Notes under the pieces: model-generated
What the model was told of the DNA's origin: nothing
Databases searched by the model: none
What the model saw: the letters and a program-made list of their open reading frames with translations, nothing else
Translations under genes and position numbers: made by a program
From: a virus
Taxonomy: Duplodnaviria > Caudoviricetes
Length of the DNA stretch: 64,000 nt
Strand: one strand, 5' to 3'
Virus record (IMG/VR): IMGVR_UViG_3300013121_000005
Span: 96,001 to 160,000 of that record
Shown: positions 4,031-37,685 of the stretch, in pieces
How the letters are laid out: each line of letters opens with the position of its first letter
Position numbering within the stretch: position 1 is the first letter of the stretch

Positions 4031-5236
4031 ATGGAGACCAATCAGATCAGATACCGTACTGGGCAACAATTGACCTTCTTGGCAACAAAGAGTTTTGCCC
4101 TCGGGAATACCGGGTATACGATTATGGAGGGGCAAGAGGTTCTCTTCGATGGTACCAATGTCGAGGTAGGGGGGAATAAGTTTTCGCTCCCTTCTCTTCG
4201 TGGGGCGGTTAGAATGGGGTGGTTGGTCCCCCCTGAGGACTATGATGCAGCGATGGACAACCCTCGTCCTGCTGTGGCTGCCAACATTCAGGTGCGTTCG
4301 GCTAATGACCTTGGTCAGAATCCTATGCAGCCTGTGAGACGAGCTGCAATTGTGACTACTGCGACGGATGAGCATGTGATCATGAATAGGGCGGCGCGGG
4401 CTGAGGCTGCTGCGGATCAAACTCATTTTGTTCGAGGGGGTCGAGGGATGGAAACCCATGCTAGTTCGGAGGGGGTTCCAGTTGCGCGAACCCTTCTGAC
4501 GCGGGCTCGATCAGAGACCCAGGTAACCCCGGATACAGTTGGTCAGGCTATTCTTGCAGCCGACAAGGTTAAGGTCCAGCCCGGACAAGGAATCTCTGAG
4601 GATGAGATGCTGCGCCGGATGTCTGAAGAGGACCGTGCCAAATATGTTGAGGAAAAAGCGCTCCGTAGGGAGGAGGTACTGAGTCGCACAAAAGACTATT
4701 CTCTGCCCCCAGCTCAGACAACCAATCTTGCGGCCTACAATAACTCAACTCAAGTTGTGGCAAGGGTCCCGCCGCAGCGAGCGAAGGTTACTGAGACGGA
4801 GGGGGCCAGGGTGTCTTTTTCTGTTGGAGGGGGCACTGAAATTGCTGACTTTACCGGTAGCTCTGAAAAGCCGCCTCAGGAGAGTATGGTTACGGCCGAG
4901 GGGATGACATTTCGGAACACCAATGGGCCAAAGGTTGCATTTCAGGCTCAAGCTCAAGTAGAGCCTAAGCCCCAAGCTGCTGAGCCTAAGCCCCAAGCTG
5001 AGGAGTCTCGGATTGACAAGGATGGGACTGCGGAGGCCAGAAAGCAGATTGCAAAGACTCTCTGCAAAGACTTTCCTGATGAGTACAGCTTTGCGGATCA
5101 TTGGAAGCGACGGCTAGCAATGATCCGGTTGCACTACGAGGGTCGATATGATGTGATTCGTGCGATTTTCGCTGCTGAGTCGGATGACTTCAAGCGAACC
5201 CTTCTTGAGGAGTTCCCCGAGGCGTTTCGTTCGTAG
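4031..5236 (+). CDS. hypothetical protein (~400 aa)
   Basis: ORF 3989..5236; AGGAG SD supports ATG 4031; contains a 21-bp EPKPQA duplication at 4961-5000. Confidence 0.7.
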   Translation: METNQIRYRTGQQLTFLATKSFALGNTGYTIMEGQEVLFDGTNVEVGGNKFSLPSLRGAVRMGWLVPPEDYDAAMDNPRPAVAANIQVRSANDLGQNPMQPVRRAAIVTTATDEHVIMNRAARAEAAADQTHFVRGGRGMETHASSEGVPVARTLLTRARSETQVTPDTVGQAILAADKVKVQPGQGISEDEMLRRMSEEDRAKYVEEKALRREEVLSRTKDYSLPPAQTTNLAAYNNSTQVVARVPPQRAKVTETEGARVSFSVGGGTEIADFTGSSEKPPQESMVTAEGMTFRNTNGPKVAFQAQAQVEPKPQAAEPKPQAEESRIDKDGTAEARKQIAKTLCKDFPDEYSFADHWKRRLAMIRLHYEGRYDVIRAIFAAESDDFKRTLLEEFPEAFRS

Positions 5237-10114: not shown

Positions 10115-10132
10115 GTTCAAGGTTTCTAATTC

Positions 10133-10163
10133 AGATGTAAACTCGTAAACTAGACCCAGATGA
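10133..10163 (+). promoter_or_regulatory. RRAY array overlapping the SD of the DUF5659-like gene
   Basis: AGATGT AAACTC GT AAACT AGACCC AGATGA; last unit overlaps the GAGG SD. Confidence 0.55.
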
Positions 10164-10170
10164 GGCTGAA

Positions 10171-10422
10171 ATGACAAAGAACTTGAAGGAGCAGCGAGAA
10201 TTCCGTACGCCAGACCTATACTTCGCGGCTTTTCTTCAGACGGCTGGAGTTGAGTTGAAGCGTACAGATCGGGAGAACGCAAGAGTCTTTTTTGTGTTCA
10301 GTACGGAAATCGCGGACATTGAGGAGTTGAAAACGGGTTGGTTCAACAATACAGCCAAAGTCGCAGCTCAACCCTATGCAAACAACGTGAAGTCTCTCAA
10401 GTCTGTATGCCATATGGGTTGA
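10171..10422 (+). CDS. small DUF5659-like protein, candidate nucleic-acid-binding regulator
   Basis: FRTPDLYFAAFL..AG..L....RENARVFFVF...ELK..WF....V....Y...VKSLK resembles the DUF5659 pattern as I recall it. Confidence 0.65.
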   Translation: MTKNLKEQREFRTPDLYFAAFLQTAGVELKRTDRENARVFFVFSTEIADIEELKTGWFNNTAKVAAQPYANNVKSLKSVCHMG

Positions 10423-19448: not shown

Positions 19449-20501
19449 ATGAAAAGGAAGATGAGTATGTCAAACGAAGAATCAATGGAGCCTGGTGTTG
19501 GGCTTGATGTCGGGACGATGAACATTGTTTCCGCCCGCCAGGCGGAGGACCGAACTCAAACAAGACGAGTTCGGGACGCTTTTATCGACTTAGACGTTGA
19601 AGCTAAACGATCGCTCCGAATGTCTAAGGTGAGCTACATCGAGAAGGGGGGTCAGCTCATTGTCATTGGGGATAGTGCCCTGGACATGGCCAACCTCTTC
19701 AATCGGGAAGTTCGTCGTCCTCTTGCTAAGGGGCTTATCTCCCCTGGGGAGTTGGATGCTCAAGAAGTTCTATCCTTGATGATTTTTCAGGTTCTTGGCG
19801 AGCCTCTCCGGCATGGGGAGCATTGCTACTACAGTGTTCCTGCTGAGCCTGTTGATGTCCCGGACCAAGATGTGGCCTATCATCGTGAGGTCTTCAAGAG
19901 CATCATAGCTGAGCATGGGTACACCCCTCACCCAATGAATGAGGCTTTGGCAATTATCTACAGCCAGTGCGCTCAGGAGCAATTCTCTGGGTTGGCCATT
20001 TCGTATGGCTCAGGTATGTGCAATGTTGCTCTGTCTTACCAAACGATGATGGGGCTTGACTTTTCAATCTCTCGGGGTGGGGATTGGATTGATCTTCATG
20101 CTGCTAAGGCGTTGGGGTCTACGGCAGCTCGTATGTGCTCCATTAAGGAGAAGGGGGGTTTCAATTTGGCAAGTCCCCCGAGAGGCAATCGGGAGGCAGA
20201 GGCCCTCTCCCTTTATATCCGAAGCCTTATCTCCTACAGTTTGGAGAAGATTGCTGTCCAATTCCGGAAGGATTCAGGGAAGGTGAATCTTCCTACTCCG
20301 ATTCCATTCGTGGTAAGTGGGGGGACTACGAAGGCTGAGGGGTTCATGTCCCTTTTCGAGGAGGAATTCGCTTCAATCAGGAAGAGGGGGTTCCCCATTG
20401 AAATTTCGGAAATTCGTCGGGCTAAGGACCCTATGACAGCCGTTGCAGAAGGTCTTCTGGTTCTTGCTTTGCAAGAGGAAGAAGAGACTCGTGGGGCCTG
20501 A
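19449..20501 (+). CDS. actin-fold ATPase (MreB/FtsA/ParM superfamily)
   Basis: phosphate-1 GLDVGTMN, connect-1 NEALA, phosphate-2 ISYGSGMCN, adenosine VVSGGT, connect-2 DPMTAVAEG. Confidence 0.85.
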   Translation: MKRKMSMSNEESMEPGVGLDVGTMNIVSARQAEDRTQTRRVRDAFIDLDVEAKRSLRMSKVSYIEKGGQLIVIGDSALDMANLFNREVRRPLAKGLISPGELDAQEVLSLMIFQVLGEPLRHGEHCYYSVPAEPVDVPDQDVAYHREVFKSIIAEHGYTPHPMNEALAIIYSQCAQEQFSGLAISYGSGMCNVALSYQTMMGLDFSISRGGDWIDLHAAKALGSTAARMCSIKEKGGFNLASPPRGNREAEALSLYIRSLISYSLEKIAVQFRKDSGKVNLPTPIPFVVSGGTTKAEGFMSLFEEEFASIRKRGFPIEISEIRRAKDPMTAVAEGLLVLALQEEEETRGA

Positions 20502-21694: not shown

Positions 21695-21715
21695 AGACAG
21701 ATGGAGAGTCCCCCA

Positions 21716-22147
21716 ATGCCGAAGTATGTTTTTGAATGTCAGTTATGTTCGGTTCGTTTTGAGAGGACCTTGAGCATAGGGGAGCACCCAACGCATTCTT
21801 GCCCTAAGTGCAAGGAAGAAGCTCCTCGACTCTTTACTGGTTTCATGTTTGCTTTCGCAGCAGGTGGTTCTTCCCCCGCTAATTCGGGGGTTCATGATCA
21901 TGACTACCCTACAGCGGATAAGATTGTGGGGCGTAGCGCAGTAGAGCGTTGGGAAGAGTATCGAGAACGGGATAAGGTGAAGAGAAAAGTCCGTGAGTTG
22001 GGGGGTACAGAAGCTCTTCTTCGAGTGGATGGGGATGGATTTGTCGAGTATGACGCTATGACCCCAGATGATAAGAAGGTTCGAGAGACGGTTGTGGATT
22101 ATGCTGTCACCATGGAGCACCAACCTAAACTCGACGGGGGTCAATAA
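21716..22147 (+). CDS. FmdB-like zinc-ribbon protein
   Basis: MPKYVFECQLC..RFE......CPKC; GGAG before ATG 21716. Confidence 0.75.
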   Translation: MPKYVFECQLCSVRFERTLSIGEHPTHSCPKCKEEAPRLFTGFMFAFAAGGSSPANSGVHDHDYPTADKIVGRSAVERWEEYRERDKVKRKVRELGGTEALLRVDGDGFVEYDAMTPDDKKVRETVVDYAVTMEHQPKLDGGQ

Positions 22148-22183
22148 AGCATTGTTTTACCCCCTACGGGTAGAAGAGAACCC

Positions 22184-22329
22184 ATCCGGCTTATGGCTCG
22201 GGACTTCGAGGCACCGGATTTAGATGTACTTCAGATCAGACCCAGATAAGCCCCCTTTCGGGGGGAAGCCTTGATAAGTCGTATAGATGCAGACCCAGAT
22301 GCATAAGGCTCTGACCTGAGGAGAATCGG
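22184..22329 (+). promoter_or_regulatory. structured 5' leader of tail sheath with two RRAY arrays
   Basis: stems GGCTTAT/ATAAGCC and AGCCTT/AAGGCT enclose AGATGT/AGACCC/AGATGC arrays; CCCCC/GGGGG hairpin between them. Confidence 0.55.
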
Positions 22330-25300
22330 ATGGCTCTCGGACCGTTTGACCCGTACGTCCCCCCTGGAGTGTACAGCCGTAGTTTGACGGAGGCTAATGT
22401 AGCGTCGTTGATCGCTGGCCTTCGTATCCCAACTCTTATTGGTGTTGGCCAAGAGGAATTGGAGCAGCTTGACCTGGAAATGGTTAGGGGTTCTAGTTCT
22501 ACTTTGGACCAGAAGGTCACCAATGAGGACGTGACGGCTCGTTGGGTGGTGAGTGACGTCAACCCTCAAAACCTTGTCCTTGGGGTTAACAGTGGGGCTT
22601 TGACTCGATTCGTTGTGCGAAACTTCCCCATTGTCGATGGGCAGGGGTTTGGCCGTACAACGAATGATGTTCGGTCCGTGGCTGTCACTGTGGATGGGGT
22701 CCCAGTGGCAGTGGGTGCGGTTCGAGGGGCAACGGGAGAAATCATCCTTCAAGTCCCCCCTCCCCCCGGTGGGGTGGTGCGATGCACCTACTTCTTCCAC
22801 CGTGGGGATACAGCTTTTACGGATGATGTGTCTAGTCAGGTGACTACGACCAATGCGGAGATCACAACCCCTGGGTACGAGACCTTCGCTATCGTATCTG
22901 GCTCCAACGACATTTTCAAGATCAAGGTCAATGGGCTAGAAGCCACGGTGGTTTTTGTGGCTGCTGCGGCGGCTACGGCTTCGTCCCTCAAGACTCAAAT
23001 CGATGCAGCAGCTATCCCTGGGCTTGCAACCTCGGTATTTACTGCTAACAACGGTGCTCTTCAACTGAAGTTCTCAGCCACCACTTCGTTGGAGATTGGG
23101 GATGGTACGGCTAACGGCGTCCTTGGCTTGTCCGCAGGTCAAAAGACTGCACGTAACGTTAGTTTCCGCACCTTCCAGCGTCCCATTGTGGATGGGACCT
23201 CTGGAGGTATTACAACTACGGATACCTCCAAAGTTGTTGTTAAGGTCAATAGCGTACAGGTCATCCCTACCTCGGTAGATGGGACGAATGGCGTTGTAAC
23301 TCTGCCTACAGCCCCGCCCCCTGGGGCTGTTGTCCAGATTACGTACTTTGCCAATACCTGGCAGGATACGTTCGACTATCTCCCAAATACTTTGGTCACC
23401 AATGTGATCCGAGCTGGGATTTCGTCTGGGCGTTCGGATTACATTCAGAATCAGGACTTCGTGATCTCAAATCCGAGTCCAGATGTCTCGATTATCCATT
23501 GGGGCACCAGCTACTCTATTTCGTCAACCTTGCGGTCCCCTGGGGCAGAGCCCTTTGACGACTCACAGATTACCCCTACGCTTGTAGATGACAAGCTTTG
23601 GAATGCTTTGTGTACGAGGTACGTAGACACCTCAGTTACACCAGCAAAGACGTCTTCTACTGAGTTCTTGCTTCCTGCTGTTCCTACTACGGGCAATGGT
23701 CGGGATTCGGTCCTAGGCCAAACACTCTATAGTACGGTAACGAATAGTCGGCAGAGCAGCCTTACAACCTCTCGTCCGGATCTTGTCGTGGTTCGTGTAG
23801 GTCGAACCCTTCGGGATGCTCTTGGGCGCCCAGCAGCCAAGGTGCTTGCGGTGGACGGGCCTAATCGTAAGGTCACATTGAAGGATCCGGTCCCTCCGGA
23901 TTTCAATGCTTATGCGACATTCTACTACAATCGAATCACGGACGACACCTTCATTTTGACCAACAAGACTCCTGGTCCAATTGGGTCTGGGCAGTTTGAG
24001 GTCTTCAGCACCCTGTTCAACACGAACCTGATGCAGGTCCGGTTCGGGGTGAAGGGTGGCGGTCTGGTTGACACGGTTCAGTGGCCACGTGGTGTGGAGC
24101 AGATTCCAGATGCTTTCCATTTTGGGGGCACCCCGGTTTCTGAGACGGTCACGGTGACCTTTGGGACCTCGGCTGCTACAAGTGCCGTGTACACCAATAA
24201 GGGGGCAGGCCCCTGGTCGTTCTACACTCCGTCTTCGGCCACTTGGCGCACCATCGTCAATGGGGTGACAGTTACGACCAGCCTTGCTGTGGCGACAAGG
24301 GGTTACCTTGTCTCGCAGTTGGTGGCTCTTTCGGGTGGTGGTTTGGCTATCACTTTGGGCACCAATGACCAGTTGGAGCTTACAATTGATGGGACCAACA
24401 TTTCGGTAACTCTGCCGAATGGTGTGGCCGTTACCCCTGCGGCAATTGCAACTGCGGTCAACGCAGCGATCGACGCAAACATCGCCTTCTCTGGCACGGC
24501 TCCGAACAATCTGTTCACGCCGGTACCCAGCACGAATGCAACGTACTTTGTCCTACGTAGCTACTCAACCCCAGCGGCGCTTCCTGGGGGGTTTGACCAC
24601 AAGTCTTACGCTTCGATCCGGCAAGGTACTGCGGAAACGACGCTTGGGTTCACGACCTTCCAGCGTGCAGACGGGACTCCTACAGCGGTTAATAAGCCAG
24701 CTACGTTGCTTAGCTCGTTGGCTCAGCCCTACGCTTTTACGAGTGGCGTAGATGATACGTTCAAGGTTCGGATTGATGGTGTTGACTTCACGGTCACCAT
24801 CAACCCAGCCTCGACGACAGCAACCCTTGTAGCTGCGGACATCAATGCCGTCATTGCATCGAAGGGTGTGGCGAGCGTAGGTACGCTCGGCAACTTGAAC
24901 AAGATCCGCATTACGAGCAACTCGAACTCGGACCAGTCGTCGGTGCTCATCCTCAATGGGACGTCAAACCCAATTCTAGGCTTTAGCGAGGGAAGCTTCG
25001 CAAGCCAAACTCGGGTTGGAGTCCAAGAGGTAGTGGATCGGCTCATGGACACCGTGAACTTTGCGGTGACCACGTGGTCTCCCCCAACTCCCCTTGCAAC
25101 GGGCGCAGTGGCGTATCCTTCGACGATTGGCGGGGCCACCTACCTAACAATTGCGTCGGTGGTCGTGGGTACAACGTCTTCGATTGGATTTGCTACAGGA
25201 ACCAACTCGGCTTTCAATGTCCTTACCGGCACTCAGATTACACCTGGGACGGACGGGGATACGGGCGAGGCAGCCTACGACAACTTCGTGGTCACCTCTA

Positions 25301-26619
25301 CGAACCCAATTGGGTCGGCAGGTGTGGGTACCCCTGGGCAAACCTACACGGACGCTCGTACAGGGCTCCGGTTTACGGTTCTCCCTGCATTGGATGGGTC
25401 CTACAATACCAGTGGTTACTTTACACTGGATGTGTCCCCTACCTGGAAGGTGAACCCTTCGGTTTCGTACCTTTCGGTACCTGGTCTGGAGTTGATTGTT
25501 GCGAACACGGTTAACGTGGGAGTCAACGATACAGCTCAACTCCAAACCTTCCACCCGTCTGGGGTGGAACCTCGGAACGGGGACTTCTACTTCGTATCGT
25601 ACCGGTTTTTGAAGCAAGACTACTCGACTCGAATCTATCGTCAATTCAAGACGATCGAGGCGAACTACGGGCGTCTTTCCCCTGAGAATCGGGTTACTTT
25701 TGCAGCCTACCTCGCAATCCTCAACGGGGCTGTTCTTGTTGGGATCAAGCAGGTTCTAAAGGTCCCCAATACGAACCAAGGGAGCGATCAGTCGTTTATC
25801 GACGCGATCGGTAAACTTGCAACTCCCTTGCCGGGTAACATCAAGCCAGACATTCTGGTTCCTTTGGCTACCTCGACCGCAGTTTACTCGTATCTGACTC
25901 AACACTGCGAGGTGATGAGTAATATCCGTAACCAGTCGGAACGAATGGGCTTTATTGGTTTTGCAAGTGGCACTTCTCCAACGAATGCCCAGACGATTGC
26001 CAGGAGCCTTACGAGTCAGCGAGTGGTAGCGTTCTACCCAGATTCGGCAGTCATCACTCTTTCAAATGAAGTAGGTGAGACGTTTGAAGCTCTGGTGGAC
26101 GGTAGCTTCTTTGCAGCAGCGTTCTCGGGAGCTGCTGTAAGCCCCACTCTTGACGTCGCAACTCCTTACACCCGTCGTAGAGTTCAGGGGTTCACTCGTA
26201 TTCCACGCATTCTAGATGTGGTGGATATGAACCAGACAGCAGTGGCTGGGGTCACTCTATTGGAGGATTTGGACCCGATCATTCGAGTCCGTCAAGGTCT
26301 CACGACGAACATGACCTCGATTTTGACTCGCCTTCCAACGGTGACTCAGATTGCGGACCATGTGGGTATCAACTCGCGGTCTGTACTTGACGCCTTTGTG
26401 GGAACCAAGTTCTTGTCGAGTCGCGTAAACGAGGTTGAGGTCTCGATGACCAACCTCTTCAAGCAACTCATTCAACAAGAAATTGTTACTTCCTTCACTG
26501 GAATTTCAGCAGTTACAGATGTTGCGGACCCGACTGTCCTCAGGGCAGAGGCGTACTACCAGCCGATCTTCCCGCTCCTCTATCTGGTCTTGACTTTCAA
26601 CTTGCGAGCAAGAATCTAG
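22330..26619 (+). CDS. contractile tail sheath protein (large, with inserted domains)
   Basis: YVPPGVYSR N-terminus; C-terminal sheath domain (ERMGFIG, IRVRQGLTT, DPTVLRAEAYYQPIFPLLY..LTFNL); GAGGAG SD. Confidence 0.9.
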   Translation: MALGPFDPYVPPGVYSRSLTEANVASLIAGLRIPTLIGVGQEELEQLDLEMVRGSSSTLDQKVTNEDVTARWVVSDVNPQNLVLGVNSGALTRFVVRNFPIVDGQGFGRTTNDVRSVAVTVDGVPVAVGAVRGATGEIILQVPPPPGGVVRCTYFFHRGDTAFTDDVSSQVTTTNAEITTPGYETFAIVSGSNDIFKIKVNGLEATVVFVAAAAATASSLKTQIDAAAIPGLATSVFTANNGALQLKFSATTSLEIGDGTANGVLGLSAGQKTARNVSFRTFQRPIVDGTSGGITTTDTSKVVVKVNSVQVIPTSVDGTNGVVTLPTAPPPGAVVQITYFANTWQDTFDYLPNTLVTNVIRAGISSGRSDYIQNQDFVISNPSPDVSIIHWGTSYSISSTLRSPGAEPFDDSQITPTLVDDKLWNALCTRYVDTSVTPAKTSSTEFLLPAVPTTGNGRDSVLGQTLYSTVTNSRQSSLTTSRPDLVVVRVGRTLRDALGRPAAKVLAVDGPNRKVTLKDPVPPDFNAYATFYYNRITDDTFILTNKTPGPIGSGQFEVFSTLFNTNLMQVRFGVKGGGLVDTVQWPRGVEQIPDAFHFGGTPVSETVTVTFGTSAATSAVYTNKGAGPWSFYTPSSATWRTIVNGVTVTTSLAVATRGYLVSQLVALSGGGLAITLGTNDQLELTIDGTNISVTLPNGVAVTPAAIATAVNAAIDANIAFSGTAPNNLFTPVPSTNATYFVLRSYSTPAALPGGFDHKSYASIRQGTAETTLGFTTFQRADGTPTAVNKPATLLSSLAQPYAFTSGVDDTFKVRIDGVDFTVTINPASTTATLVAADINAVIASKGVASVGTLGNLNKIRITSNSNSDQSSVLILNGTSNPILGFSEGSFASQTRVGVQEVVDRLMDTVNFAVTTWSPPTPLATGAVAYPSTIGGATYLTIASVVVGTTSSIGFATGTNSAFNVLTGTQITPGTDGDTGEAAYDNFVVTSTNPIGSAGVGTPGQTYTDARTGLRFTVLPALDGSYNTSGYFTLDVSPTWKVNPSVSYLSVPGLELIVANTVNVGVNDTAQLQTFHPSGVEPRNGDFYFVSYRFLKQDYSTRIYRQFKTIEANYGRLSPENRVTFAAYLAILNGAVLVGIKQVLKVPNTNQGSDQSFIDAIGKLATPLPGNIKPDILVPLATSTAVYSYLTQHCEVMSNIRNQSERMGFIGFASGTSPTNAQTIARSLTSQRVVAFYPDSAVITLSNEVGETFEALVDGSFFAAAFSGAAVSPTLDVATPYTRRRVQGFTRIPRILDVVDMNQTAVAGVTLLEDLDPIIRVRQGLTTNMTSILTRLPTVTQIADHVGINSRSVLDAFVGTKFLSSRVNEVEVSMTNLFKQLIQQEIVTSFTGISAVTDVADPTVLRAEAYYQPIFPLLYLVLTFNLRARI

Positions 26620-26730: not shown

Positions 26731-26756
26731 CGCTCCTCGGTTTGAAAGAGAGAAGC

Positions 26757-28835
26757 ATGGACGTTCTCAAAGCTCTAGTGGCGGTTCGTAAGGCTATTCG
26801 GGTTGCCACCATCCGATTGAACGAAGTTGGGGACCGGGTAGAGGTCTCGGGGCCCTATAGCGAGATGGTAGCTATCAACCCTAAACTTAAGTCTAGGGGA
26901 TTTTGGTGGGACCCCTCGAAGAAAGTTTGGTGGATCTCTAGGGGTAAGTTGACAGACCGACAGATGCAAGGGCTAAATGACCTTCTGTATGGGAAGTCTA
27001 AGAGCAAGGAAGAACCAGCAAAAGACACCACGCAGGAACTCACTGATCTGTTTGACCAAGCCGCAGGAGAGAAACTTGTTGGGTTTGACTTTGTGAAACT
27101 TCGTGGGGGGTTGACCCTCTCTGGGCGTACCTTTGACTTGACAAGGGAAATCAAGAAGGCGGGAGGCTTTTGGCGGGCTGATTCCAAAGAGTGGTGGTTC
27201 TCTGTCAGTGAGACGAATCTCGATGGTTTCAAGCTATTGTTGCGGGACCTAAAGCGTGAGTCGAAGGTTTTTGAGGGTCGTCAGAAGGATGTCCTGGACT
27301 TGGTGGGGGGCCAGGATCGGAAATGGCCCAGACTTAGAGTTTGGGTTCAAGTAAGTCCAGATGGGAAAGGTATTCCTCAAGTAGTCGTTGGGGGGGACAC
27401 TAAACCCGTGTACTTGCTAATCAAGGAGTGCCTCTCAGAGGTTCGTTTCGGAGGTTCGTCTTGGTCGGTACCTGCATTAGCAACAAGTAAAGACGAGTTG
27501 ACTAGACTCTTTTCAAAGCTTGACAAACAGGAAGCGGCTAAGGAAGAGGTTGAGGGAAAGGCCCCACAGAAGCGAGAAAACTCCCGAGGGGCCCATTGTG
27601 AACGGTGTGGAGTTTGGGTCCCTCCTGGGGAAGGCTACCTTCAACAGGAGCTGAACTCAGATGATGAGGACTTCGTGTGGAAGGTTTTCCACAAGGATGT
27701 GGAAGTCTGCAAAAAGCGTCTTGAAGAGGTGAAGCTCCAGCGGGAGTTGGCTCAAACGCAAAAGGAAGCGTTTCGGAACCTCCACAGGCTAATTGCAACT
27801 CCAGGTAACTACGTGTCTGGGAAGAACATCATCCCTCCCGGGCAAGAGATTCCGTTGTCAGGTAGTGGGTCTCGCCTTTATGGGGGAGGGACATGGCTTG
27901 TTCTAGAGCCTGATGGCCGACATGTGTGGTATGTCCAGAACAACGGCGCTGATGGGGATGATTGGGCACGGAATAATATCCAAACTGGTGGGGCTGGCGC
28001 CATTGGGTGGCGTGCGGCTGTGACAGATGAGCTTCAAGTTTTGATTGACGCTGTTTCTGGGAAGAAGACGGCTTCCTATTCCTATGATAGGACAGCGAAG
28101 TCATTTGACCTCCAGAGATGGGGCTTAGGGGGTCTTCTTCAGGGGGAGCCCGTTGTTTTGTACCACGGTACAACTCGAACCTTCAAAGCGTTTGACCTCT
28201 CGAAAAGTCGGGAGGATCTCGTCAACAAGTACTACGGCAGGGGTATTTTCTTGGTCCCCTCGAAGCGGATTGCGGAACAGTACGCCGAAGCCAATCGTAA
28301 TATCGGCTTTGACCCTTCGATTGTTGACGACTTGAAAATGCGCAACCCTGGTGCGGGCAAGTTCATGGAGGAGTTGGTTGCCCGTGGGGATGATGTTTGG
28401 GAGGACCTCACCCCTGATAAGTTAGGGGTGGAGCCTGGTGAACAATTCCAGGAGGCTGTCGTTCGGATGGTTGGAGGTGTAGACCCTAACACGATTGCGG
28501 ATGTGGCTAGGTACGTCCTCGGCAGTAAGCTCTCCCTCTCCTTCAGTGAAGAGCCAGTTCACATTTTCAACATGAGTACTGGTATGCCTGAGTACATGTA
28601 CGCGAACTTGGATGAGTTGGGTTTGGATTCAGAGGTCTATCGCCCGAAAGTTTACAAAGTGGCTGTCAAGGTAGAAAACGTTCTTGTCACAGCTAGTAAG
28701 TCTGAGGCTCGTAAGGCGCAGTCTAGGGGGTATGATTGTGTCGTTTTCCATGGTTCGGATCTTGTAGGTGGTGTCCCAGAGGTTGCGGTCTTTAGCCCCC
28801 ATAGGGTCAAGATTCTTGGTTATGAAGTGGTGTAG
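26757..28835 (+). CDS. polyvalent protein with C-terminal ADP-ribosyltransferase-like domain
   Basis: three G.T...LK..G..W....K.W-type modules, C..C..H..C finger, NNGADGDDW domain, then LYHGT..F..FD...YYGRGIFL...A.QYA...GYD.V....EVAVF. Confidence 0.7.
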   Translation: MDVLKALVAVRKAIRVATIRLNEVGDRVEVSGPYSEMVAINPKLKSRGFWWDPSKKVWWISRGKLTDRQMQGLNDLLYGKSKSKEEPAKDTTQELTDLFDQAAGEKLVGFDFVKLRGGLTLSGRTFDLTREIKKAGGFWRADSKEWWFSVSETNLDGFKLLLRDLKRESKVFEGRQKDVLDLVGGQDRKWPRLRVWVQVSPDGKGIPQVVVGGDTKPVYLLIKECLSEVRFGGSSWSVPALATSKDELTRLFSKLDKQEAAKEEVEGKAPQKRENSRGAHCERCGVWVPPGEGYLQQELNSDDEDFVWKVFHKDVEVCKKRLEEVKLQRELAQTQKEAFRNLHRLIATPGNYVSGKNIIPPGQEIPLSGSGSRLYGGGTWLVLEPDGRHVWYVQNNGADGDDWARNNIQTGGAGAIGWRAAVTDELQVLIDAVSGKKTASYSYDRTAKSFDLQRWGLGGLLQGEPVVLYHGTTRTFKAFDLSKSREDLVNKYYGRGIFLVPSKRIAEQYAEANRNIGFDPSIVDDLKMRNPGAGKFMEELVARGDDVWEDLTPDKLGVEPGEQFQEAVVRMVGGVDPNTIADVARYVLGSKLSLSFSEEPVHIFNMSTGMPEYMYANLDELGLDSEVYRPKVYKVAVKVENVLVTASKSEARKAQSRGYDCVVFHGSDLVGGVPEVAVFSPHRVKILGYEVV

Positions 28836-28868
28836 TGAGGATCTTTCTATCTCTTAGGTAGTAACAGA

Positions 28869-35569: not shown

Positions 35570-36295
35570 ATGGGATCTCCTCGTGAATTGGATAGCTACA
35601 TTTACCGGATGGGCACTGCGCCCAACACCCGTGTTGCCGTTAGCCAGAAGAACAAGGTCTATGGCTACATGGTGGGCAAGCAGAAGTTCCAGCAGATCGG
35701 AGTGATCTCGGAGTTCGGCTTCGACGAGTCGAGGACCATTGACCCGGTTCGTGGCGTCGGCTTTGGTGATCAGGTCGCTGAGCTGGTGCCTGGCGTCACG
35801 GAGCCAATGACACTCACGCTGAACCGTACATTGCTCTACACCGTGAACATCTTTCAGGTTCTCGGGTACAAGGGTGGTGTTGAGGGTCTTGTGAGGTCGC
35901 TCCGTCATCACCGCTGGCCGTTTGACCTCAAGCAAGAGTTGGTCTTCTCCGAGATCAGCTCAAGGGATGACGTTGTGGGGGTCCCCGTTGCCCCGAAGCA
36001 AGCTGTTCAACTTCCCAGTGGGGTTCAGAACCTTGCTACCAATGCCATCAAGGCGCTTTTCACTTTCTATGAGGGCTGCTGGCTCAACAGCTACAGTGCC
36101 TCGTTTACATCGGACGCCGCGATGGTTGCTGAGAACAGCTCCGTTACGGTAACTGACATCATTGACGGGTTCTCGAACTACAGCGAGTTCATGGACACGG
36201 GGCTAGCTCCAATTGGTTCCAATGGGGCTGCTGGTGCAGGGTACTCTCTTCGGTTCTCTGGTGGGGCGTCGCCTAATACAACGGTTGGCGCGTAA
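35570..36295 (+). CDS. tail tube protein
   Basis: IGVISEF..DESR..DPVRGVG...ELVPG...LTLNRTLLY...PFDL...YEGCWLNSYS...E..SVTVTD; lies before chaperones and tape measure. Confidence 0.8.
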   Translation: MGSPRELDSYIYRMGTAPNTRVAVSQKNKVYGYMVGKQKFQQIGVISEFGFDESRTIDPVRGVGFGDQVAELVPGVTEPMTLTLNRTLLYTVNIFQVLGYKGGVEGLVRSLRHHRWPFDLKQELVFSEISSRDDVVGVPVAPKQAVQLPSGVQNLATNAIKALFTFYEGCWLNSYSASFTSDAAMVAENSSVTVTDIIDGFSNYSEFMDTGLAPIGSNGAAGAGYSLRFSGGASPNTTVGA

Positions 36296-36304
36296 CTTTA
36301 ACTA

Positions 36305-36465
36305 GAGACCTTCGGTTTCCCCCTAACAGAGAGTGGACAAGCGGTTGGATGTGGATGTAGATGTATACAGACAAACCAGACCAGATTTAGATCGGTTTCC
36401 TTCGGTTTTCACCTAGATTGAATCCAGATGTACACCTACCCCCTCCTTCCCGCTCTGTCCTTCTC
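36305..36465 (+). ncRNA. candidate structured RNA/leader with long RRAY array
   Basis: GAGAG..GGACAAGCGG (36329-36344) pairs with CCGCT-C-TGTCC-TTCTC (36450-36465) and encloses about ten GGAT/AGAT/AGAC/AAAC units; small hairpin at 36305. Confidence 0.5.
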
Positions 36466-36491
36466 CACACCCTCAACTAAGGTGCGAGAGA

Positions 36492-37685
36492 ATGGCAACC
36501 CTTTCGGCAAAGAAAATCAAAGATGCGCTCAAGAAGGCGCAGAACGTTGGGCAGGTAGAGGAATCGATTACCATCGACGGGTGTGAGATTGTTCTTCAAA
36601 GTCTCACACCGGATGGCTATGCAGCAGTCAGCACGGACATTGATGAGATTCCAGAAGGAATCGGCTACCTCAATGCATTCAAGCGCGAGCACCTAGCCCG
36701 GTCGCTTGTGGAGGTCAACGGAGTTAGTCTTCGCGGGGTGGACCTGGTTGAGGTTGAGGTTGAGGAGTTTGACCCCAAAACGCAGCAGCCTGTTCTCAAG
36801 TTGGTTAAGGTAGAACGGCATGCTTTTGTCCGGGACCATGTTATCAATACATGGGCGCGAGAAGCGATTGACGTTGCGTTTCGTAAGTTCAACGAAGTAG
36901 TGGGTAAGGCTGAAAAGCTGGCTTCTGCTGGGGTGACTTTTTCGATTCCAGATGAGACCGAGGCTGAGAAGTATCGTCGGCTCCTTGTTGAAGCTAAGGA
37001 AGTTGAAGGGTCTATCCCAGTAGAGGTCTCTACTCGAATTCGAGGGGACCTTGGGTTTATCGTCTCACCCCAACCTACGGAATATGCAGCAGCTACGGAC
37101 AGGCTGTCTAAGTTGGCGGAGCAAGAAGGGGGTAGGCCAGAGGAGCGCAAGACCGTTGAGGGGTCTTCTGATGCCTCGCAAGGGGCTCGGGTAACTCCTC
37201 CTGCCCCTTCCCCCCCTCCTCCTGCCCCTTCCCCCCCTGCTCAGGTCGAACAGGAGGTGTTGCTTGTTCGACCCGCAGTCCCTATCCCGGGTTATACCCC
37301 TCCTACCCCTGAGGAGTTGATGGCAGGGAGGCAACCTCTCAATCGGGTTCCAGTCCCAGTTCCAGTCCCAGCCTCAGTTGCTACAGCAGCAGCCCCCCCT
37401 CCTAACATTCAAGTTAAGCCAGTCCTCCCAGCCTCTGAGGCAGCTCTTCGGAGAGCGGCTGAAATTGCAGCCCTGGAGGGGGAAGTTGGAGGCGACGATC
37501 CTTCTGCCTATTCTGTTGAAGGCGGGACGTGGTTTCCTGGGCAGAACCCTGGGGGTGGAAATTCCCAGGCTATAGAGTTGTCTCGTCAGCAGCCTAAGCT
37601 AGACCCGAAAGAGGCTGAGCGTATCATTGACCAACCCCCTATAGCGGGCATTAACCCTAGATTTCGCCCTCCGCCTAGGATTTGA
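36492..37685 (+). CDS. tail assembly chaperone with Pro-rich disordered tail
   Basis: follows tube gene; IVLQSLT...LARSLVEVNG...W...ID..F pattern. Confidence 0.6.
   Translation: MATLSAKKIKDALKKAQNVGQVEESITIDGCEIVLQSLTPDGYAAVSTDIDEIPEGIGYLNAFKREHLARSLVEVNGVSLRGVDLVEVEVEEFDPKTQQPVLKLVKVERHAFVRDHVINTWAREAIDVAFRKFNEVVGKAEKLASAGVTFSIPDETEAEKYRRLLVEAKEVEGSIPVEVSTRIRGDLGFIVSPQPTEYAAATDRLSKLAEQEGGRPEERKTVEGSSDASQGARVTPPAPSPPPPAPSPPAQVEQEVLLVRPAVPIPGYTPPTPEELMAGRQPLNRVPVPVPVPASVATAAAPPPNIQVKPVLPASEAALRRAAEIAALEGEVGGDDPSAYSVEGGTWFPGQNPGGGNSQAIELSRQQPKLDPKEAERIIDQPPIAGINPRFRPPPRI

Follow-up and report, generated by a model that had tools for sequence, protein, structure and literature searches.

A conserved leader RNA with phased RRAY tetramers and two competing folds at the start site of a predicted tail assembly chaperone gene in an uncultured jumbo phage

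The locus and the anatomy of the leader

The DNA considered here, referred to as the window, comprises 64 kb (bases 96001-160000) from an IMG/VR virus record, linear, 363 kb long and 76% complete, which derives from a metagenomic jumbo phage. All the long open reading frames (ORFs) of the window are carried by the + strand, and two of them, an ORF of 241 aa (35570-36295) encoding a tail-tube-like protein and an ORF of 397 aa (36492-37685) encoding a predicted tail assembly chaperone, flank a non-coding gap of 196 nt (36296-36491). The whole of this gap is the leader of the chaperone mRNA and, on comparison with related sequences, it encodes a conserved structured RNA on the coding strand, with two covarying stems, P1 and P3. 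An earlier note on this DNA had described a structured RNA of about 160 nt at this position; its conservation, its structure and its location on the coding strand are borne out, but the leader occupies the full gap and includes a hairpin, P3, that had been missed. The features of the locus, including the Shine-Dalgarno sequence (SD) and the pyrimidine-rich segment complementary to it (anti-SD), are as follows.

35570-36295, + strand: gene for a tail-tube-like virion protein of 241 aa (tblastn, look-alike clusters)
36305-36319, + strand: small hairpin 3' of the tube stop codon, GAGACC-UUC-GGUUUC, with no U tract (folding, terminator scan)
36329-36333, + strand: SD-like copy, GAGAG, which forms the 5' outer extension of P1 and is able to capture the anti-SD (constrained fold)
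36335-36344, + strand: 5' arm of P1, GGACAAGCGG (fold; the equivalent stem covaries in 46 distinct sequences)
36347-36393, + strand: 5' array, GGAU, GGAU, AGAU, AUAC, AGAC, AAAC, AGAC, AGAU, AGAU, with spacers of 1-2 nt
36394-36414, + strand: central segment, variable and not conserved in sequence; a G+C-rich hairpin in many relatives
36415-36435, + strand: 3' array, AGAU, GAAU, AGAU, ACAC, the best-conserved block among relatives, CCAGAUGUAGAUC
36450-36460, + strand: 3' arm of P1, CCGCUCUGUCC (fold, comparison)
36461-36471, + strand: anti-SD, UUCUCCACACC, common to the P1 extension and hairpin P3 (both folds)
36481-36494, + strand: SD (GGUG, 36481-84), spacer and AUG, forming the 3' arm of P3 (seen in the minimum-energy fold of gap and AUG)
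36492-37685, + strand: gene for a predicted tail assembly chaperone of 397 aa (AlphaFold2, Foldseek)

Several elements of this plan had already been recognized in the earlier note. The small hairpin behind the tube stop codon is present, and a terminator scan of the gap confirmed that there is no hairpin followed by a U tract. The basal stem that had been drawn between 36329-36344 and 36450-36465 is obtained exactly when the SD region is held unpaired: GAGAG-U-GGACAAGCGG then pairs with CCGCU-C-UGUCC-UUCUC, and the outer extension (36329-36333 with 36461-36465) is conserved as a GAGA/UCUC pairing in all 12 close relatives. The about ten repeat units envisaged in one large loop correspond to 13 RRAY tetramers (AGAU, GGAU, GAAU, AGAC and AAAC; R, purine; Y, pyrimidine) in the gap, but the loop is divided into a 5' array, a variable centre and a 3' array. 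A hidden peptide, the possibility that had been named as fatal to an RNA element, was rejected: indels of 1, 2 and 4 nt are frequent within the arrays, and overlapping ORFs occur only by chance. There is no sigma-70-type promoter match in the gap.

Conservation among relatives and covariation of P1 and P3

A protein-anchored scan yielded 163 related stretches, the best 80 of which were retained for comparison. The tube-like gene and the chaperone homologue are adjacent in almost all of these 80 contigs, separated by a gap of 47-252 nt. The gaps share a common plan that comprises, from 5' to 3', often a G+C-rich hairpin at the stop codon, the 5' arm of P1, the 5' array, a variable central hairpin, a well-conserved 3' array (consensus CCAGACCCAGAUGUAGAUC), the 3' arm of P1, the pyrimidine anti-SD, the SD and the AUG; the element runs directly into the SD and AUG in all relatives. 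A post-stop hairpin of -8 kcal/mol or better was found in 32 of 61 relatives, about 20 of these hairpins being compact G+C-rich stems and some others overlapping P1, and none of the 32 is followed by a U-rich tail. One relative (L011, 4727-5390) has a tube-chaperone gap of 664 nt, with an array at about position 4786; the remainder looks like an insertion.

A covariance model (R1), built on 16 distant relatives with the window excluded, recovers the gap of the window with an E-value of 2.7e-5. It matches 56 gaps in total, every one on the + strand at the tube-chaperone position; the sole other match is a weak antisense hit (E 0.13) over one of these same gaps. On five complete genomes (398-529 kb), R1 finds one clear copy at the tube-chaperone gap in three, and gives no match at E <= 0.1 in the other two, one of which holds a group-1 leader. 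A search of 690 kb of unrelated viral DNA with the model gave no match. An exact 14-mer scan of the viral collection returned chance matches only, none of them matched by R1, and a nucleotide search of GenBank phages gave no match.

Covariation across homologous tube-chaperone gaps, which the earlier note had proposed as a check, was found together with conservation. RNAalifold, applied to a plain MAFFT alignment, predicts a P1 of 9 bp with the core of P3 (CCUC with GAGG) immediately 3' of it, and compensatory changes are seen in 8 of the 13 predicted pairs, for example ACAGCG/CGCUGU versus GCGACG/CGUCGC; five P1 positions show such changes in this alignment, which was not fitted to the model. 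In the model-fitted alignment, which comprises 46 distinct sequences, pairing is seen in 92.8% of the P1 and P3 cells, as against 34-60% with slid partners, double changes are present in all 13 pairs, and the observed values were reached by none of 500 shuffles. The plain alignment provides the independent check, because a model-fitted alignment leans towards its model. The many G-U pairs establish that the + strand is the folded strand. An RNA from the minus strand folds better when considered alone (z = -3.29), but was rejected because the gap matches, the G-U pairs and the genes are all on the + strand.

Phased RRAY units

The RRAY units are not scattered. Within the gap, seven neighbouring pairs of units are spaced 5-6 nt apart, as against 0.54 expected, a number reached by none of 2000 dinucleotide shuffles. 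The same phasing is seen throughout the family, in which a spacing of 5 or 6 nt is shown by 327 neighbouring units (about 23 expected) and harmonics appear at 10-12 nt. The number of units per leader has a median of 8 and reaches 14, usually split between the 5' array (5-7 units) and the 3' array (3-4 units). Enrichment over flanking DNA in the family leaders is 5-fold for AGAT, 22-fold for TAGAT and 29-fold for ATGTAG, and the units occur in a strand-specific manner, in the same orientation as the genes. The phasing of the chaperone leader is the highest value in the window, followed by that of a second leader:

22148-22329, + strand: leader of 182 nt with units of the same kind, 5' of the tail sheath gene (phased RRAY units)

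These two leaders are also the top two peaks in a unit-density scan of the whole 363-kb genome.

Two other explanations of the repeats were rejected. Start-stop mini-ORFs (AUGUAG, AUGUAA and AUGUGA are enriched) arise automatically from RRAU-GU-RRAU, and the sheath arrays are mostly devoid of AUG. A cluster of Dam sites (GATC) is not indicated by the base following the unit, AGATG occurring 118 times and AGATC 69 times. A search for an antisense partner revealed no cluster of complementary units in the phage genome.

Two competing folds at the ribosome-binding site

When the gap and the AUG are folded together, the minimum-energy structure pairs the anti-SD (36461-36471, UUCUCCACACC) with 36481-36492, a stretch that includes the SD (GGUG) and the A of the AUG. 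The resulting hairpin, P3 (36461-36492), competes with the outer part of the basal stem, and P1 and P3 abut without a gap in most sequences. When the last 22 nt were held unpaired, P1 extended outwards across the anti-SD in most of the 18 leaders tested, at an energy cost for the passage from P3 to extended P1 of between 0 and 10.7 kcal/mol; in two leaders (L056 and L026), the anti-SD already lies inside P1 in the unconstrained fold. The 5' segment that captures the anti-SD resembles the SD region: it is GAGAG in the window and its close relatives, GGGUG (versus GGAUG) in group 2, and an identical GGAGAUGA in L036. Among 56 leaders, 65% of the anti-SD bases re-pair at long range, versus 33% in controls with a shuffled 5' part. 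The leader can thus be described as two competing folds in which the start site is hidden or exposed, because the anti-SD re-pairs with an SD-like copy 5' of P1. The 3' strand of P1 competes with the SD hairpin, as it does in the expression platforms of riboswitches.

The sheath leader and other arrays

The gene downstream from the second leader (22330-26619, 1429 aa) is that of the tail sheath. The units of its leader are conserved in about 40 relatives, and 166 units in the sheath leaders are at a spacing of 5-6 nt, as against 18 expected. In a subset of these leaders, a 5' CAUCCGG is complementary both to a nearby CCGGAU and to the start region, CGGAUG, so that the predicted alternative pairing can also touch the start site. 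Two shorter RRAU-GU arrays are present in the window, one (46-70) in the leader of ORF 103-753, which adjoins an HK97-type capsid gene (778-1650), and the other (10128-10165) in the leader of a DUF5659 gene (10171-10422). As the arrays mark several late-gene leaders, a shared trans-acting reader is favoured over a device serving a single gene.

The gene directly 5' of the sheath leader in the window (21701-22147) encodes a 148-aa Zn_ribbon_8 (FmdB-like) protein, with a score of 33 bits against a cut-off of 34.4, and it occupies this position in 61 of 63 relatives. This position makes the protein a candidate RNA-binding regulator, as a lead only.

Two further observations concern the sheath region. 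A pyrimidine box (GATCTTTCTAT or TTCTATCTATTAGGTAG) is found at 28840-28868, before a helicase gene, and the same box is central in the sheath leaders of many relatives (L092, L094, L096, L103 and L138, for example); lying between the two sheath arrays, it may be a candidate late promoter. In eight relatives (L085, L087, L094, L097, L099, L109, L116 and L138), the first 400 residues of the sheath protein span about 1610-1700 nt rather than 1200, which suggests that 400-500 nt have been inserted in these homologues, as an intron, an intein or an additional domain.

Neighbouring genes

The earlier note had named the neighbours of the gap as tube and chaperone. For the chaperone this is well supported by modelling: the N-terminal domain was predicted by AlphaFold2 with a predicted local distance difference test (pLDDT) score of about 95, and Foldseek matched it to gp182 (E 2e-7) and gp181 (E 5.5e-7) of phage G, to other annotated chaperones and to the HK97 chaperone structure 2ob9 (probability 0.96). 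The model thus indicates that the 397-aa protein has a gpG-like tail assembly chaperone fold. Long ORFs, a candidate tape measure region, come 3' of its gene. The chaperone proteins terminate in a conserved GINPRFRPPxR motif with near-invariant columns (37640-37685 in the window). A programmed frameshift from the chaperone gene into the next ORF is unlikely, the next gene starting at its own ATG (37688).

For the 241-aa upstream protein, identification as the tail tube is a good lead, drawn from sequence similarity. The protein is 50% identical to gp329 of Tunturiibacter phage Tunturi_5 and has a weaker match to gp180 of Bacillus phage G, annotated as a 'virion structural protein' (both tblastn), the gene for which lies between the sheath gene and the chaperone genes. 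Some of its language-model look-alike clusters carry Phi812_tail_tube and DUF2001. The label remains a lead rather than a demonstration, because the AlphaFold2 model has a pLDDT of only 32.

Elsewhere in the window, a volactin-family actin-like protein (19449-20501; Pfam E 2.5e-72) is encoded in the neck/tail block, and a 697-aa protein with an ART-PolyVal ADP-ribosyltransferase domain (26742-28835) is encoded between the sheath and tube genes.

Proposed mechanism and alternative explanations

The favoured explanation for these features, with a little less than an even chance of being correct, is that the leader is a translational operator in which an array, read by an oligomeric or multidomain RNA-binding factor, is coupled to two competing folds. 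In the first, a short P1 would close the repeat domain, the anti-SD would pair with the SD and the first base of the AUG (P3), and initiation would be blocked. In the second, the SD-like copy 5' of P1 would take the anti-SD, lengthening P1 and freeing the SD. The RRAY arrays within P1 would serve as a lattice for the factor, the binding of which, suggested by analogy, would shift the balance between the two folds and tune chaperone synthesis relative to that of the tube protein; either repression or activation could result. The same factor may also read the sheath leader and the two shorter arrays. Since the leader is wired to the translation start of the chaperone, it could reasonably take part in adjusting the level of the chaperone to that of the tube protein.

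A number of observations weigh against this interpretation. Some relatives, with gaps of 47-88 nt, lack any such element. Several others have short leaders with few or no units in which P1 and P3 are kept, so the switch can exist without a large array. In group 2, the 5' arm of P1 has no RRAY unit, so a mechanism in which binding melts P1 fails for some sequences. The folding energy of the + strand of the gap is not significant for the single sequence (z = -1.39), and support for the structure therefore rests on the relatives; among these, the stems are invariant in the 12 closest to the window, which thus add conservation but no covariation, the latter being seen only between subgroups. Finally, the earlier note had spoken of a protein-loading leader, and many short single-stranded units are indeed displayed, but no binder was found: searches of the phage genome (76% complete) with known reader families (S1, S21, TRAP, HutP, CsrA and KH_1 domains) gave no binding factor.

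The strongest alternative, itself rather improbable, requires no factor at all. The leader would throttle chaperone translation to a fixed low level through P3, and the arrays would be an unstructured standby or enhancer platform for the ribosome, possibly via host S1, on which the 30S subunit would wait until P3 opens. Standby is an established mechanism at structured ribosome-binding sites (PMC5934652). Such a view is consistent with the sequestration of the SD and AUG in the minimum-energy fold, with arrays that are purine-rich and non-self-complementary, made of units with few pairing partners, and with the presence of arrays before genes for which high expression is expected, for example the sheath gene and the gene adjoining the capsid gene. 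However, standby needs no specific sequence, whereas here a specific tetramer is enriched up to 22-fold and strictly phased (5-6 nt) in two leaders that are unrelated to each other; the arrays lie inside P1 and do not adjoin the ribosome-binding site; and no phage S1 was found in the incomplete genome.

There is a slim chance that the leader is instead an element of RNA processing or stability. P1 and its extension would form a double-strand nuclease site, like the intercistronic RNase III sites of T7, and the cut would separate an abundant tube mRNA, protected by the post-stop hairpin, from the chaperone mRNA; the repeat domain might even be freed as a protein-titrating small RNA, the kind of decoy considered in the earlier note. 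The frequent post-stop hairpins (32 of 61 relatives, none with a U tail), the bracketing of a discrete domain by a long-range stem and a multi-site display reminiscent of sponge RNAs are all in keeping with this idea. For comparison, P1 with its extension amounts in the window to about 15 bp with two bulges, and in T7-type RNase III sites the double-stranded part is of about 20 bp and frequently contains an internal loop. On the other side, RNase III usually needs roughly two helical turns, and P1 itself is short (6-11 contiguous base pairs), bulged and below this length. In addition, processing does not require the tight link between SD copy, anti-SD and SD, and the element is present in one copy per genome (three of the five complete genomes with an R1 match), fused to a start codon.

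The notion that the arrays act as DNA, binding a DNA-binding regulator or belonging to a phage late promoter region with the stems being incidental, is very unlikely. In many relatives, the candidate late promoter box at 28840 has a counterpart, a pyrimidine box (ATCTTTCTAT), in the centre of the sheath leader, and some units contain GATC, but both the compensatory changes and the G-U pairs point specifically to the + strand, the units keep to one strand and share the orientation of the genes, a spacing of 5-6 bp does not fit the DNA helical repeat, and the gap has neither a sigma-70-type promoter nor, in the central segment of the chaperone leader, a conserved box. A small-molecule riboswitch, with a P1-closed aptamer and a 3' strand feeding an SD-sequestering expression platform, has the classic topology of P1, anti-SD and SD in its favour but is hardly credible, as the domain inside P1 ranges in length from less than 60 nt to more than 150 nt, with a variable number of units and a non-conserved centre, and there is no fixed ligand pocket, conserved aptamer core or Rfam match.

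If the translational operator is extended to the other arrays, a wider and distinctly more speculative proposal follows, which we consider unlikely as it stands: a post-transcriptional tail-assembly regulon in a large clade of phages of 300-530 kb, in which a single protein encoded by the phage, either ring-shaped or multidomain, would recognize the phased RRAY arrays that precede late genes (sheath, chaperone and others), flip SD or AUG switches and thereby set the stoichiometry or timing of tail parts. A virion protein and the conserved Zn-ribbon protein adjoining the sheath leader would be candidate readers. Such a regulon would resemble TRAP control, but both its RNA code and its reader would be new.

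Huge phages need tail tube, sheath and chaperone in widely different amounts, and little is known of the way in which the balance is achieved; a leader conserved across dozens of uncultured jumbo phages is of interest in this respect. It brings together features seldom combined: a TRAP-like phased array and a three-part switch made of SD copy, anti-SD and SD. If a reader exists, it would provide a new RNA-recognition code and a new case of translational control of virion assembly, and the leader itself would offer a regulatory part that is compact and portable. Should there be no reader, the leader still represents a well-supported new family of cis-regulatory RNA, absent from Rfam.

Comparison with known systems

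The closest parallel is with TRAP. In the trpE leader of Bacillus subtilis, the TRAP ring binds about 11 triplets at a spacing of 5-6 nt, and refolding lets an anti-SD capture the SD. Like the TRAP leaders (trpE, trpG/pabA and trpP), which display about 9-11 short single-stranded units at 5-6 nt spacing, the leader described here carries its units in an mRNA leader, and it has the same three parts as trpE: an array, a segment holding the anti-SD and an SD hairpin. A TRAP-like logic is proposed by analogy, because the array spacing and the three pairing partners match those of the trpE leader. The units themselves differ, being RRAY tetramers rather than GAG/UAG triplets separated by 2-3 nt, so that only the 5-6 nt spacing matches; UAG or CAG often precedes AU (TAGAT 94 times, CAGAT 90 times), but GGAU, AAAU and GAAU units occur without it. 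Unlike the arrays of TRAP leaders, those described here also lie within a long-range stem and are divided in two by a central hairpin. TRAP itself (PF02081) has no match in the incomplete phage genome, the host lying outside this search.

The division into two arrays recalls HutP, a hexamer whose two faces read two clusters of a repeated unit in the hut leader, again with a spacer between the clusters. HutP, however, reads UAG with 4-nt spacers and controls a terminator rather than an SD, and no HutP was found in the incomplete phage genome. Among phage operators, that of T4 gene 32 consists of a folded nucleation element and repeated unstructured units bound cooperatively by a phage protein. 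It resembles the present element in being a phage mRNA leader with a folded element and a run of units leading to the ribosome-binding site, but its units are of the UUAAA type and it has no enclosing stem and no switch between SD copy, anti-SD and SD.

The decoy RNAs CsrB and RsmZ, with which the earlier note had compared the region, likewise carry many copies of a short motif on one RNA. They are independent small RNAs with their own promoter and terminator that present GGA in hairpin loops to CsrA. Here, by contrast, a cis leader is fused to an SD and AUG into which the RNA runs directly, the units, mainly AGAU, AAAU and AGAC, lie in joining strands rather than as GGA in hairpin loops, and neither a terminator nor a sigma-70-type promoter match was found in the gap, nor CsrA in the incomplete phage genome; the decoy reading is not supported. 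The Rfam search that the note had suggested gave no match to a CsrB/RsmZ-like RNA, and Rfam 15 yielded nothing credible around the gap at E-values up to 10, nor at gathering score over the whole window.

Alternative pairing that decides whether the SD is exposed is shared with the expression platforms of riboswitches, which differ in having a conserved ligand pocket, and with the mom mRNA of phage Mu, whose sequestered start site is opened by the small zinc-finger protein Com. Literature searches found no description of a leader of the present kind, although the 8495 unnamed candidate structured RNAs of a survey of IMG/VR (PMC10690425) may include it. On the favoured explanation, the leader would be a variant of the protein-type translational operator with an SD switch.
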